Shown here: positions 57,001 to 60,000 of the stretch, in pieces
Layout: every line of letters begins with the position of its first letter
Numbering within the stretch: position 1 is the stretch's first letter
Origin: an uncultured Verrucomicrobiae bacterium
GTDB lineage: Bacteria > Verrucomicrobiota > Verrucomicrobiia > Chthoniobacterales > UBA10450
Direction: 5' to 3'
DNA: 64,000 nucleotides
Assembly: GCA_963772365.1 (NCBI GenBank)
Contig: CAVYXA010000001.1
Location: forward strand, 1,733,267 to 1,797,266
Made by a program: the position numbers

Positions 57001-60000
57001 GGGACGCAGGCAACATCGTTCTTCAGGTCGTCTTGAAGTACACCTGACCTTCGACACGGCGCCAAGATCGACATGTTACTCTTTCTCGTGGTCGTCATCG
57101 CGGCGCTGATTTTCGAATACAGCAACGGATTTCACGATGCGGCCAATGCCATTGCCACGGTTGTTTCCACCAAAGTTCTCACTCCGCGCCAGGCGATCGC
57201 GATGGCGGCATTTTTCAATCTCACCGGCGCGCTGTTGGGCGGCGCGGTAGCAACGACAATCGGGAAAGGTTTGGTGGACACGAACGTCGTGACCATGAGC
57301 ACGGTGCTGTGCGCCGTTTCAGCGGCATTCATTTGGAATATCGCTACGTGGTTGTGCGGTTTGCCTTCTAGCTCGAGTCACGCGCTCATCGGCGGACTTT
57401 GCGGAGCGGCACTCGCTACTGCCCGCGGAAACTGGTCGGTGATCAAATGGAGCACCGGGCTGTGGCCCAAAGTGGTTCTCCCGATGATTACCTCTCCGTT
57501 CGCAGGATTTATCTTTGGCGCGTTCCTGATGTTTCTGTTGTTTCTGTTGCTCCATCGGCTGACGCCGCATTTCATCCATCAATCTTTTGGCAAAATCCAA
57601 ATCTTGAGCGCGGCCTGGATGGCGCACAGCCATGGCACGAACGACGCCCAGAAGACGATGGGCATTATCACGCTCGCCCTCTTTACCGGCACGAAGGCTG
57701 GGCGTTTCAATCATCTTCCCGCGTGGCTCGATTTTCTCAAGACACCTGTCTTCGCGCTACCAACCTGGGTGAAAGTAATTTGCGCACTGACCATGGCGGT
57801 GGGCACAGCGGCCGGCGGCTGGCGGATCATCCGCACGTTAGGCCATCGCATGGTCAAATTGCAGCCCGTCCACGGTTTCGCCGCCGAGACCACAGCTGCG
57901 CTGATTATTCAGAGCGCGAGCTTATATGGCATTCCGCTATCCACTACACACGTGATCTCGACTTCGATCATGGGTGTCGGCGCAGTGAAACGATTCACCG
58001 GAATGAAATGGGGCGTCGTCGAACGCATTCTCTGGGCCTGGATTTTTACCTTGCCCGTGAGTGCCCTGATCGGTTACGCGCTCGAACGAATCGGACTGCT
58101 CGTTTGAGCTTTTTGGGCCGGCGCGCTATTCGAGCTTCCTCGGCGGTGGACCGTCATAGCCGTGATTGACCGGATCGATCCTGCGCATCGGTCTCTCGCG
58201 AGTTTGCTCTTCGATCACGTGCGCCACCAGTCCCGGCGCGCGCGCGATCATGAAAATGCCATTGAACGCCGCCGGGTTCATTCCCAAATCTGCCAGGATT
58301 GCGCCGATCGCGCCGTCGACATTGATCGGAAGCGCCTTCTTCGAATCGGCGAATGATTTCTCCACCGCTCGCGCCACCTGCATGTGCGAACCATCAACGC
58401 CGGCTTCGCGCGCCAGCTCGAACAATCGCGCTGTGCGCGGGTCCTTCGTGTGAACCCGATGGCCAAACCCCGACATCCGCTCGCCTGCTTCCCTCATCGT
58501 CGCGAGCGTAAGCGCGGCGGCTTTATCGATGGAAATCGATTCATCTTTCGCGCGATCAGCGATCTTCTTCAATTGCTGGGCGCAATCCTCGATCGCACCG
58601 CCGTGATGTCGATTGATCGACATGATGCCGGCTGCGACTGACGCGCTCAACGACGCGCCCGTTGAAGCAACCGTTCGCGCTGCCAATGCGCTCGGAGGCG
58701 TCGCGCCATGGTCGATCGATGATACCAAGATTGCGTCCATCAACCGGCCTACGGCGGGTGTTGGCATTTCACCGGTCAAAATCAAATAGACGGCGGCACC
58801 AAAAGAAACACGTCCCATCAGTTCGGCAATGTTGTATCCGCGAACGGCCACCCGGTTCGGCTCGATTCGCGTGATCGCCGTGTTCCAAACCGCGTTCTTG
58901 TCAGCTTCGCTCATGAGGCTTTCTCCATTCGTGCGCTTCAAAATTTCGACGACGGCGCCAGGCAACTCGCCAAATGAATCCACCACTGTCGCCCCGGCTT
59001 CTCGCAACGCTTTCACTTTGCCGGCATGCGTGCCGCGGCCGCCTTCAATGATTGCTCCCGCGTGGCTAAATCGCGTGCCTTCGCGGGCCGCCTTTCCTCC
59101 GATGTAAGCGATCAGCGGCTTCGTCACCTTTCGATCGCGAATCATCTGAGCCAGCTCCTCTTCCTGTGACGAACCGATTTCGCCAAAAATCACAATCGCT
59201 TCTGTGAGCGGATCGGCTTCAAACATCAACGCCGCGTCGGGAATACGAATCCCAAGAACCGCGTCGCCACCGATATGAGCGATCGTGGAAATGCGCACGC
59301 CAGCTTGTCCCAGATAATAACCGGTGCTCGAAGCCATGCCGCCGGACCGGCTGATTACTCCGACACCTTTCGGAATTCCGGGCTTGAACCATTGTCGCGC
59401 GCTTTCCGCCCGTCCGCCGATCATTCCGACAACAGCTTTGCCCGGACTCAATACACCGAGCGTGTTAGGACCCAGAAACGTCGCGCCATTCGCTTTCGCC
59501 GCCGCCGCAATTTCCATGGCGTCCCACACCGGCACACGATCCGGCACCAGCACGGTGAGTTTGATCCCGGCGTTGATTGCGGCGATGGCCGCCTCTTTGA
59601 CACCGGCCGCGGGCACGAAAAGCACAGAGATGTCGATCCTACCCAATGCTTTTACTGCGTCTTGCGGAGTATCGAACACAGGAATGCCGAGCACAGTTTG
59701 CCCTGCTTTGCCCGGTGTCACTCCCGCGACCACATTGGTTCCGTAATCGCGCATCAATCGAGTCCGCGCGCGTCCTTCGCGTCCGGTGATCCCTTGCACC
59801 AGCACGCGCTTTTTCTCGTCGATCAAAATCGCCATGCGAGCTTGATGTTGATCGAATTCACCATTTTCGGCAAGCGAACCTTGCCGAAATTCCCCATCTG
59901 TTTCCAGTTCGGTATTCTTAGTGCGCGAACTTCTCTTGAATCAACCGGTTCAAGTGCGCAGCGACGGCATCTTGGTCAAGCCGTTCAATGACTTCGTTCA

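Follow-up and report, generated by a model that had tools for sequence, protein, structure and literature searches.

A candidate ATP-dependent homocitrate-cleaving enzyme and its gene module beside lysine-degradation genes in an uncultured Verrucomicrobiae bacterium

The window, a 64,000-nucleotide stretch of the genome of an uncultured Verrucomicrobiae bacterium of the order Chthoniobacterales, carries on its minus strand a gene (58126..59835, 569 aa) built like part of an ATP-citrate lyase, which raises the question of what such an enzyme would cleave. A first-pass annotation had described the product as a SucD-like CoA ligase fused to a citryl-CoA-lyase domain and had proposed homocitrate as its substrate. 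Family models and motifs agree with that architecture. With a probability of roughly 0.6, the gene is read here, from its sequence and gene context, as coding for the putative alpha subunit and lyase domain of an enzyme akin to CCS/CCL (ATP-citrate lyase) that uses ATP to cleave homocitrate.

Within the open reading frame, residues 1-300 form the ligase alpha part and residues 316-569 the citryl-CoA-lyase-type domain; the phospho-His motif FSHAGA lies at residue 256, and the catalytic motifs of both parts are all intact. In family-model searches, the alpha part stayed under the cuts of both SucD models (261.9 vs 336 in one case), and the lyase domain passed two citryl-CoA lyase models (259.8 vs 212 and 253.1 vs 245) without reaching the citryl-CoA lyase equivalog PRK06224.1-1 (218.2 vs 261). 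The previously reported order of PDB scores was reproduced, with SCS alpha (1.2e-73) ahead of free Ccl (3.2e-54) and ACL alpha (9.2e-51). Taken alone, the lyase domain is nearest to Hydrogenobacter Ccl (4.4e-55). It contains the citrate-synthase-type catalytic His/Asp/Arg set, and its motifs, which align to 6HXP, are kept in 103 copies, although strict regular expressions miss the NVDG and C-terminal patterns in about one third. The gene is not the SucCD of this genome, as the SucD cuts are failed and an ordinary sucC-sucD-gltA set lies at C1:467342-471346.

The putative partner beta subunit (512 aa) lies outside the window, at C4:90360-91898 on the plus strand, where the first-pass annotation had placed it. 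The combination typical of CCS and ATP-citrate lyase, an ATP-grasp beta with a phospho-His alpha, is present, and a fold search with the whole beta model returned SCS, CCS and ACL matches only. Beta has GGGGS and GNP-A-K-Y in common with CcsA, but differs, as had been suggested, in the substrate loop, which reads SGSGVASQEQ in 161 of the 174 betas, and the alignment with CcsA breaks at this point. In a search for the citrate-binding loop, Citrate_bind (PF16114) scored 26.0 against a cut of 26.8 and covered only 54 of its 177 positions. What had been called a 130-aa extra tail is a degenerate (decayed) ferredoxin domain.

In relatives, the beta, alpha and lyase genes are grouped with genes for an HD protein, a homoaconitase, a dehydrogenase and a second dehydratase. 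Their counterparts in the window, all at the places given earlier and all on the plus strand, are an HD-superfamily protein in which AD replaces HD (9230..9871), a constant module member; a single-chain LYS4-type homoaconitase (10031..12007) with the cluster Cys motifs and a TIGR00139 score of 743.8 (cut 529.9); a homoisocitrate-dehydrogenase-like enzyme (12156..13310) with the substrate helix YFSPIVGLR and the NADP-type cofactor motif HGSAPKY; and an MmgE/PrpD-family dehydratase (42904..44337), recognized by Pfam MmgE/PrpD domains, whose gene converges on pcd. Counting gene starts within 4 kb of 80 beta loci gave alpha at 72, the HD gene at 38 and homoaconitase at 23 (72, 38 and 22 before); five module genes stand in order at 28 of these loci and all six at 15. 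This order is kept in Chthoniobacterales, Phycisphaerae, an Acidobacteria-labelled phylum sample and metagenomes. The alpha gene is present in 23 of 44 genomes of the family sample; a different phylum sample has the module in 19 of its 251 genomes, and two further ones are nearly empty (1/201 and 2/301 genomes, each count including the centre genome). The HD protein of the window matches nothing in Pfam or NCBIfam, Atlas gives HD cluster names only, and its one PDB match is weak (YhaM, E 0.03); at a guess, it might be a repair hydrolase for a homocitrate-lactone or a phospho-intermediate. A description of the module was not found in the literature searched, which included few subscription journals and no supplements, nor is it mentioned in the accessible parts of PMC8542988 and PMC9802188.

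TIGR00139 is also passed by the homoaconitases of all five planctomycete carriers and by that of G721 (707.6). According to the accessible part of PMC3556520, LYS4-type enzymes interconvert homoaconitate and homoisocitrate only, and methylcitrate requires a separate syn-dehydratase. The second dehydratase slot of the module is always filled, either by PrpD or, in other lineages, by a second aconitase-family (LeuCD-type) clade, which is distinct (13 rows, support 100) in a quick tree of 46 rows based on the first 480 residues, with large subunits under 380 aa, such as that of L164, left out. The PrpD of the module is 34% identical to the methylcitrate-cluster PrpD of the same genome and passes none of the PrpD equivalog models (59-101 bits vs cuts of 458-950). 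The exchange of PrpD for the second clade fits an (S)-homocitrate intermediate.

The N-terminus of the dehydrogenase finds its best matches in four HICDH entries, and on the substrate-binding half IPMDH entries score far under HICDH entries. Its substrate helix compares with fungal YSSPIVALR and has neither the IDH Asn nor the IPMDH pattern; SPIV, as in S. pombe HICDH, is seen in 50 of 51 copies, and the Ser-x-Asn of IDH is missing. No NCBIfam cut-off is passed, the best match being methanogen AksF (334 vs 540), a family that also accepts longer homologues. Where solved HICDHs have the NAD-type Asp-Ile, all 61 copies have Lys-Tyr. Lys344/Tyr345 set the coenzyme specificity of NADP-IDH in the accessible part of PMC10574006. 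The enzyme combines a pocket of the homoisocitrate type with a Lys-Tyr motif of the NADP type, a pairing that is new here.

Adjoining the PrpD gene on the minus strand are two genes leading from lysine to 2-aminoadipate, pcd for L-piperideine-6-carboxylate dehydrogenase (44475..46010; NF050084, 773.1 vs cut 730) and lat for L-lysine 6-transaminase (46175..47560, start codon approximate; TIGR03251, 570.3 vs cut 520.8). At locus L209, the module sits between gcdH-thiolase and pcd-lat. Among the 80 beta loci, a gcdH-like gene occurs in 22 and a thiolase in 27, and the acyl-CoA dehydrogenase adjoining the module is glutaryl-CoA-dehydrogenase-like. Locus L059 has a saccharopine-dehydrogenase-family gene between dehydrogenase and PrpD, with a look-alike in L200. 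A single query for a 2-aminoadipate transaminase in this genome gave no close candidate, only matches of 22-24%. Other counts weigh against a role in lysine breakdown: a Pcd orthologue occurs in only 13 of 27 carriers, Lat is over its cut in one of five Acidobacteria-sample carriers, four of which have complete operons, and Lat/Pcd are missing from many anaerobic carriers.

The slot beside lat-pcd is filled in one of two ways. Across 28 family loci, which are kin and were picked with carrier status known, it holds the module PrpD in 15, a protein termed X in 10, neither in 3 and both in none. X was absent from all six module carriers searched and present in all five non-carriers searched; an HglS-type gene does accompany the module in three carriers (X in L043 and G763, PF07063 in G005). 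The unannotated protein X of the sister genomes is, judging from its structural model, probably an HglS-fold protein. Its four best fold matches are all of the DUF1338/HglS type (3iuz, Z 10.9; 3lho, 10.7; rice hydroxyglutarate synthase 6w1k, 9.5; YdcJ, 6.6), with an rmsd of 2.8-4.6 over 148-200 aligned residues, mostly in the N-terminal module (residues 15-173). Its invariant residues H257, H354 and E430 presumably correspond, by pattern, to the DUF1338 His-His-Glu triad. Foldseek gave no match to X at E < 0.001, and Pfam found no family, PF07063 included, in any of three copies. Complementarity between the module and classical HglS (PF07063) was not observed, this family being found in 0/5 non-carriers and 1/5 carriers; the complement is X. 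The accessible part of bioRxiv 2020.01.30.927905 gives 2-oxoadipate as the only substrate of HglS. That PrpD and X alternate beside lat-pcd, never together, argues for the module as a consumer of 2-oxoadipate.

From the genes, domains, motifs, gene order and distribution observed, we infer the substrate, stereochemistry, cofactor and direction of a route by which the six-gene module would dispose of lysine-derived 2-oxoadipate without O2. The NADP-type dehydrogenase would reductively carboxylate 2-oxoadipate to homoisocitrate, a type of reaction that is uphill under standard conditions; the LYS4-type enzyme would dehydrate homoisocitrate to cis-homoaconitate, and the PrpD-type (or second LeuCD-type) enzyme would hydrate this to (S)-homocitrate. 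Beta and alpha would then use ATP, via phospho-His, to form homocitryl-CoA, from which the lyase domain would release acetyl-CoA and 2-oxoglutarate. The whole would approximate part of the fungal lysine-making pathway run in reverse, and its sum is probably 2-oxoadipate + CO2 + NADPH + ATP to acetyl-CoA + 2-oxoglutarate. A wider version, which is doubtful, casts the module as the carboxylating arm of the reductive TCA cycle copied with one carbon more: aerobes would turn lysine-derived 2-oxoadipate and CO2 into acetyl-CoA and 2-oxoglutarate via (S)-homocitrate, and anaerobes with the beta iron-sulfur tail and an adjoining 2-oxoacid:ferredoxin oxidoreductase would proceed back to glutaryl-CoA, with two CO2 fixed.

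The distribution of citrate synthase and LysX agrees with this homocitrate-cleavage reading, which the earlier annotation had favored and which the X alternation and the homoisocitrate-type dehydrogenase also support. Ordinary citrate synthase occurs in 27 of 27 carriers (a second Iso_dh gene in 26) and LysX over its cut in only four, with a separate synthase-family gene next to it in three of these; the module is therefore neither a TCA stand-in nor a means of lysine synthesis. The genome itself (90% complete) has sucCD-gltA, IDH, AcnA (in pieces) and a separate prpC-prpB-prpD cluster, which rule out replacement of the TCA or methylcitrate cycle. As previously claimed, homocitrate/isopropylmalate synthase was not found in it, the sole PF00682 match being HMG-CoA-lyase-like, and lysA passes its cut, in line with lysine synthesis by the DAP route; LysX was not found, and LeuA/LeuB/LeuC are missing. 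For planctomycete carriers, the earlier figures shifted: in five genomes, perhaps not the same five, synthase-grade PF00682 genes are present, with LysX, in two rather than one (G001 and G003), and lysA is over its cut in two rather than three. The genome also codes for malate synthase, a single SucA, an ORF resembling isocitrate lyase and, with a frameshift in the assembly, gcdH, which gives it other uses for 2-oxoadipate and acetyl-CoA. Obligate anaplerosis is unsupported (malate synthase over its cut in 2/3 carriers and 1/2 non-carriers).

The main alternative, which is unlikely, also uses up 2-oxoadipate but elongates it: acetyl-CoA and 2-oxoadipate would give homo2-citrate with a gain of ATP, followed by 2-oxopimelate, CO2 and NADPH; adipyl-CoA would come next and be beta-oxidized to succinyl-CoA and acetyl-CoA. 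This would fit the X alternation, the NADP motif and the PrpD logic, should be energetically downhill, and finds some backing in the AksF match and in the FadE/FadJ-like genes and thiolase near lat-pcd. The latter, however, are equally present at module-less loci bearing X; moreover, the homoaconitase passes the fungal LYS4 model, the dehydrogenase helix copies that of fungal HICDH, and the neighboring acyl-CoA dehydrogenase is of the glutaryl-CoA type. The same enzymes would also serve to make 2-oxoadipate from acetyl-CoA and 2-oxoglutarate via homocitrate with a yield of ATP, for lysine synthesis or for glutamate oxidation via glutaryl-CoA. In keeping with this, a PF00682 search at 1e-15 came up empty in 12 of 27 carriers, the module has gcdH as a neighbor in Chthoniobacterales, and 2-oxoacid:ferredoxin oxidoreductase genes flank the operon at 4 of 80 metagenome loci. 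What makes it very unlikely is the scarcity of LysX, the presence of lysA over its cut in 11 of 27 carriers, the lack of any hit to a gcdH query at 1e-60 in four of four planctomycete carriers, and the expectation that a producer of 2-oxoadipate should not alternate with a consumer of it.

An ordinary citrate system of CCS/CCL, aconitase and NADP-isocitrate dehydrogenase, supplying acetyl-CoA from citrate or acting as a reductive TCA arm, would account for the proximity of the lyase domain to Ccl, the CcsA-like beta motifs and the Lys-Tyr motif shared with NADP-IDH. It is nonetheless highly improbable: the dehydrogenase is without the IDH signature Ser-x-Asn, IDH and aconitase have genes of their own, PrpD or a second hydratase would be superfluous, the beta loop is unlike that of CcsA and under the Citrate_bind cut, and the lysine-gene context goes unexplained. 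Least probable is another tricarboxylate or alkylmalate, such as methylcitrate or isopropylmalate, to which PrpD family membership, the missing Leu enzymes and the anaerobic carriers without Lat/Pcd could point. Against it stand the separate prp cluster and the low IPMDH scores, and to our knowledge methylisocitrate is not oxidizable by this class of dehydrogenase.

Known systems share parts of the module. CcsAB plus Ccl of Hydrogenobacter thermophilus (PDB 6HXQ, 6HXP) has the ATP-grasp beta with its GGGGS and GNP motifs, the phospho-His alpha and the citrate-synthase-fold lyase, whose motifs DHG, HGG, GFGHR, DPR and NVDG are conserved here. However, the module beta differs in its substrate loop and ferredoxin tail, alpha is nearer SucD than CcsB (1e-73 vs 2e-42), the operon partners are of the homoaconitase type, the hosts are heterotrophs with citrate synthase, and in this lineage the lyase is fused to alpha. 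That fusion is local; the more distant relatives mostly have three separate genes, as in CcsAB/Ccl. AclBA (Chlorobium limicola 6HXJ, Methanothrix 6HXI) has the same domain order, with a beta and an alpha-lyase fusion, but matches all three module parts more weakly, and the fusion looks independent of it because close relatives are unfused (L075). The fungal/Thermus alpha-aminoadipate pathway from homocitrate to 2-oxoadipate (Lys20/21, Aco2, Lys4, Lys12) likewise has a LYS4-type homoaconitase, an HICDH-type dehydrogenase and two separate (de)hydration enzymes. Unlike it, the module has a citrate-synthase-fold lyase and CoA ligase in place of a TIM-barrel synthase, PrpD for Aco2 and an NADP-type motif for Asp-Ile, and its proposed direction and homocitrate enantiomer are opposite. 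HglS (DUF1338) with D-2-hydroxyglutarate dehydrogenase in Pseudomonas putida does the job proposed here, from 2-oxoadipate to 2-oxoglutarate, and a gene for a probable HglS-fold protein holds the place of the module in sister genomes. In the accessible part of the HglS account, the enzyme needs O2 and loses C1 as CO2, whereas the module would fix CO2 without O2 and also give acetyl-CoA. The 2-methylcitrate cycle (PrpC, PrpD, Acn, PrpB) also combines a citrate-synthase-fold C-C enzyme with a PrpD dehydratase on an acyl-CoA-derived arm, but the module has no PrpB, adds a ligase and a dehydrogenase, and lies apart from the prp cluster of the genome.

New here are the PrpD/X alternation, the dehydrogenase motif pairing, the PrpD swap and the decayed-ferredoxin beta tail. 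If the homocitrate-cleavage reading is true, homocitrate would for the first time be the substrate of an enzyme of the ATP-citrate-lyase type, its unnatural (S)-enantiomer would gain a role, and a homoisocitrate dehydrogenase of the NADP type would work in the carboxylating direction. On the doubtful wider version, enzymes of the fungal LYS4/LYS12 type would belong in bacteria to a catabolic pathway that fixes CO2, and many genes called CCS/CCL in uncultured lineages would not be signs of citrate cleavage. The case is also a caution that a ligase-plus-lyase trio in a metagenome may stand for something other than citrate cleavage or autotrophy. Under the homocitrate-cleavage reading, 2-oxoadipate would also have a third way out, one that needs no oxygen. 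The enzyme set, widespread and so far unstudied, is carried by about half the sampled genomes of the family, a very abundant soil group, and probably completes lysine breakdown in the absence of oxygen.

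The alpha-lyase fusion protein (window 58126-59835, minus strand; 569 aa) joins a SucD-like CoA-ligase alpha part, which bears a phospho-His motif at residue 256, to a C-terminal lyase domain scoring above the cut-offs of two citryl-CoA lyase models. This lyase part is nearest to Hydrogenobacter Ccl (4.4e-55, versus 2e-19 or weaker for citrate synthases) and retains the catalytic motifs of Ccl. The beta subunit is encoded on contig C4, the HD protein, homoaconitase and dehydrogenase at window 9230-13310, and the PrpD-family dehydratase at window 42904-44337, where its gene converges on the lysine-degradation genes pcd and lat, both above curated cut-offs. 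All six module genes are full length, though spread over four places. On the same strand, sufC-sufB-sufD-like genes (59918-63479) precede the alpha gene by 82 bases; they were not seen as a conserved alpha neighbour among 80 loci. Elsewhere in the window lie a tandem trio of paralogous genes (36382-42800, minus strand; ~690 aa each) that by eye share an N-terminus and have a TPR-like C-terminus, and a PIN-like ORF with a 180-aa ORF (13710-14851, plus strand) whose R-S-E pattern is presumably ADP-ribosyltransferase-like.

The module is real and conserved, and apparently undescribed so far. The neighbourhood counts claimed in the first-pass annotation were borne out, with alpha, HD and homoaconitase genes accompanying beta in 72, 38 and 23 of the 80 closest loci, which derive from Chthoniobacterales and Phycisphaerae. 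The alpha gene occurs in 23 of 44 family genomes, and carriers make up 19/251 of a phylum sample centred on genome G207. A profile search reached relatives at 28-47% identity, including one cluster named Bathyarchaeia. A further 80 loci come from metagenomes, with betas 42-51% identical to that of this genome. Alpha and lyase are encoded separately there in almost every case, with fusions in 2. Many of these contigs are short; the dehydrogenase was seen in 17 loci, HD in 16, the hydratase in 15 and PrpD in 5. The beta tail is a ferredoxin-type domain; it has 8-10 cysteines in two cluster motifs in 77/77 full-length metagenome betas, whereas close-set tails have 1-4 cysteines and neither motif (73/73); its Fer4_10 match (E 1e-4) is below the cut. 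At L001:8361-9899, the tail spans residues ~425-505, and most of its cysteines are gone in the Verrucomicrobia/Planctomycetes lineage, but in distant relatives the tail is intact.

Gene order also varies. In one subgroup (L121, L134, L145-L147, L150, L157, L163), beta-alpha-lyase precedes genes for a nitroreductase-like protein and a UbiD-family decarboxylase, with no hydratase nearby, and the ligase-lyase may be put to a different use. A variant operon (L185 and L201, genome G708) reads lyase-HD-...-PrpD-...-aldehyde dehydrogenase-beta-alpha, includes by eye short-chain dehydrogenase-like and UbiD-like genes, and lacks a hydratase in the stretch read. Genes of the saccharopine dehydrogenase family lie within or close to the operon in three planctomycete loci (L059:18501-19814, L074:17015-18343, L200:6178-7326), the first two assignments being Pfam-tested.

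The substrate is suggested by the partner enzymes. The module hydratase passes the fungal homoaconitase model, and solved homoisocitrate dehydrogenases (HICDHs) are the best matches of the dehydrogenase's substrate-binding half. The substrate helix reads YFSPIVGLR, versus YSSPIVALR in S. pombe, without the isocitrate dehydrogenase (IDH)-type Asn, and SPIV occurs in 50 of 51 copies; none of the curated family models run on the dehydrogenase was passed. Homocitrate synthase forms (R)-homocitrate. The citryl-CoA enzyme family, according to PDB 6ZNW, handles (3S)-citryl-CoA, and this geometry applied to 2-oxoglutarate would by priority rules give (S)-homocitrate, the enantiomer opposite to that made by the synthase. 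The shift of water would then involve the acetyl-derived arm, as with methylcitrate, so an extra dehydratase is predicted. According to PMC3556520, fungal homoaconitases interconvert homoaconitate and homoisocitrate only, so the pathway requires a second enzyme; the methylcitrate cycle has a PrpD-type syn-dehydratase for the step that aconitase is unable to perform. An extra dehydratase is indeed present, either PrpD or a member of a distinct LeuC-type clade, which a quick tree separates with support 100. This clade fills the place in 13 loci that show no PrpD in the stretch read, and PrpD-family genes are missing altogether from genomes G518 and G615.

Two other roles were rejected by tallies over 27 carriers, comprising 18 of the 19 in the G207-centred sample, five planctomycetes, the present genome, G208, G209 and G257; G206 and G207 were left out. 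The module is no TCA stand-in, because full-length citrate synthase, besides the short lyase, and aconitase-family genes occur in 27/27 and at least two Iso_dh genes in 26/27; the present genome also has a separate methylcitrate cluster. Nor does it substitute for homocitrate synthase in lysine synthesis, since LysX is above the cut in 4/27, three of them with a synthase-family gene alongside, and lysA in 11/27. The module is thus additional to the TCA cycle.

Pcd and thiolase are present also in family genomes without the module (tally of 46, including the unpublished G766, which is used for no other result). Of 28 loci read beside pcd, 15 have the module PrpD there and 10 have protein X, a product of 466 aa without annotation; none has both, and the other 3, two of which lie at contig ends, have neither. 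The Fisher value for this alternation (0.0003) is overstated, as the loci are kin and were chosen with carrier status known. Searched genome-wide, X was absent from 6/6 carriers and present in 5/5 non-carriers (11/13 over all module-less genomes examined). Both states occur inside single genera (g10, X in G769 and module in G792; g21, likewise G781 and G800). Exceptions are L043 and G763, with both X and module genes, and G005, with classical HglS plus the module. X belongs to a large unannotated family (7416 matches among 8000 candidates) and has no sequence match in Pfam, NCBIfam or PDB; in a predicted structure (pLDDT 70), its best fold matches are DUF1338/HglS chains, with VOC enzymes matching weakly. 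Copies of X adjoin lat-pcd at L204:7761-9161 (plus), L206:924-2321 (minus) and L207:7010-8410 (minus). According to bioRxiv 2020.01.30.927905 and 450254, HglS converts 2-oxoadipate and O2 to D-2-hydroxyglutarate and is strict for 2-oxoadipate. If X does this job, the alternating module would most simply be a 2-oxoadipate consumer too.

The reverse homocitrate route, from 2-oxoadipate to acetyl-CoA and 2-oxoglutarate, is favoured as the module's role, at a probability of roughly 0.6. Forward elongation of 2-oxoadipate to 2-oxopimelate would be easier energetically and is compatible with most of the same facts; it is considered unlikely. The forward homocitrate direction is considerably less probable. 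Lys-Tyr occurs in 61/61 dehydrogenase copies (some genomes counted twice), versus Asp-Ile of solved HICDHs, and the equivalent residues fix coenzyme specificity in NADP-IDH, according to PMC10574006; NADPH would fit carboxylation, yet NADP equally fits an oxidative enzyme, so the motif does not decide direction. Citrate as substrate, against which the failed citrate-loop test may be set, is slightly less probable than the forward homocitrate direction, and some other substrate is the least probable reading.

Against the favoured route, Pcd orthologues occur in just 13/27 carriers and Lat in 1/5 tested from the G207 sample; no source of 2-oxoadipate was thus found in many anaerobe-like carriers. 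A 2-oxoacid:ferredoxin oxidoreductase flanks the operon in 4/80 metagenome loci and could supply 2-oxoadipate from glutaryl-CoA or remove it. At L107, L135, L164 and L165, its genes and those for Hdr-like and ETF-like proteins are divergent from the operon.

Also against this route, no 2-aminoadipate transaminase was pinned down in the present genome. The genome encodes a 1026-aa fused 2-oxoacid dehydrogenase E1-like protein different from SucA (C1:578476-581556). Frameshifts split AcnA (L083:3422-8045; C-terminal piece duplicated), gcdH (L001:6725-8061) and malate synthase (C3:451138-451858) in its assembly and may be sequencing errors. Because gcdH, SucA and the glyoxylate shunt are present, the module is not the sole outlet there. 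The module would work in the manner of citryl-CoA synthetase and citryl-CoA lyase (CCS/CCL) but fails the citrate-loop test, and would thus be a CCS/CCL variant serving a new pathway.
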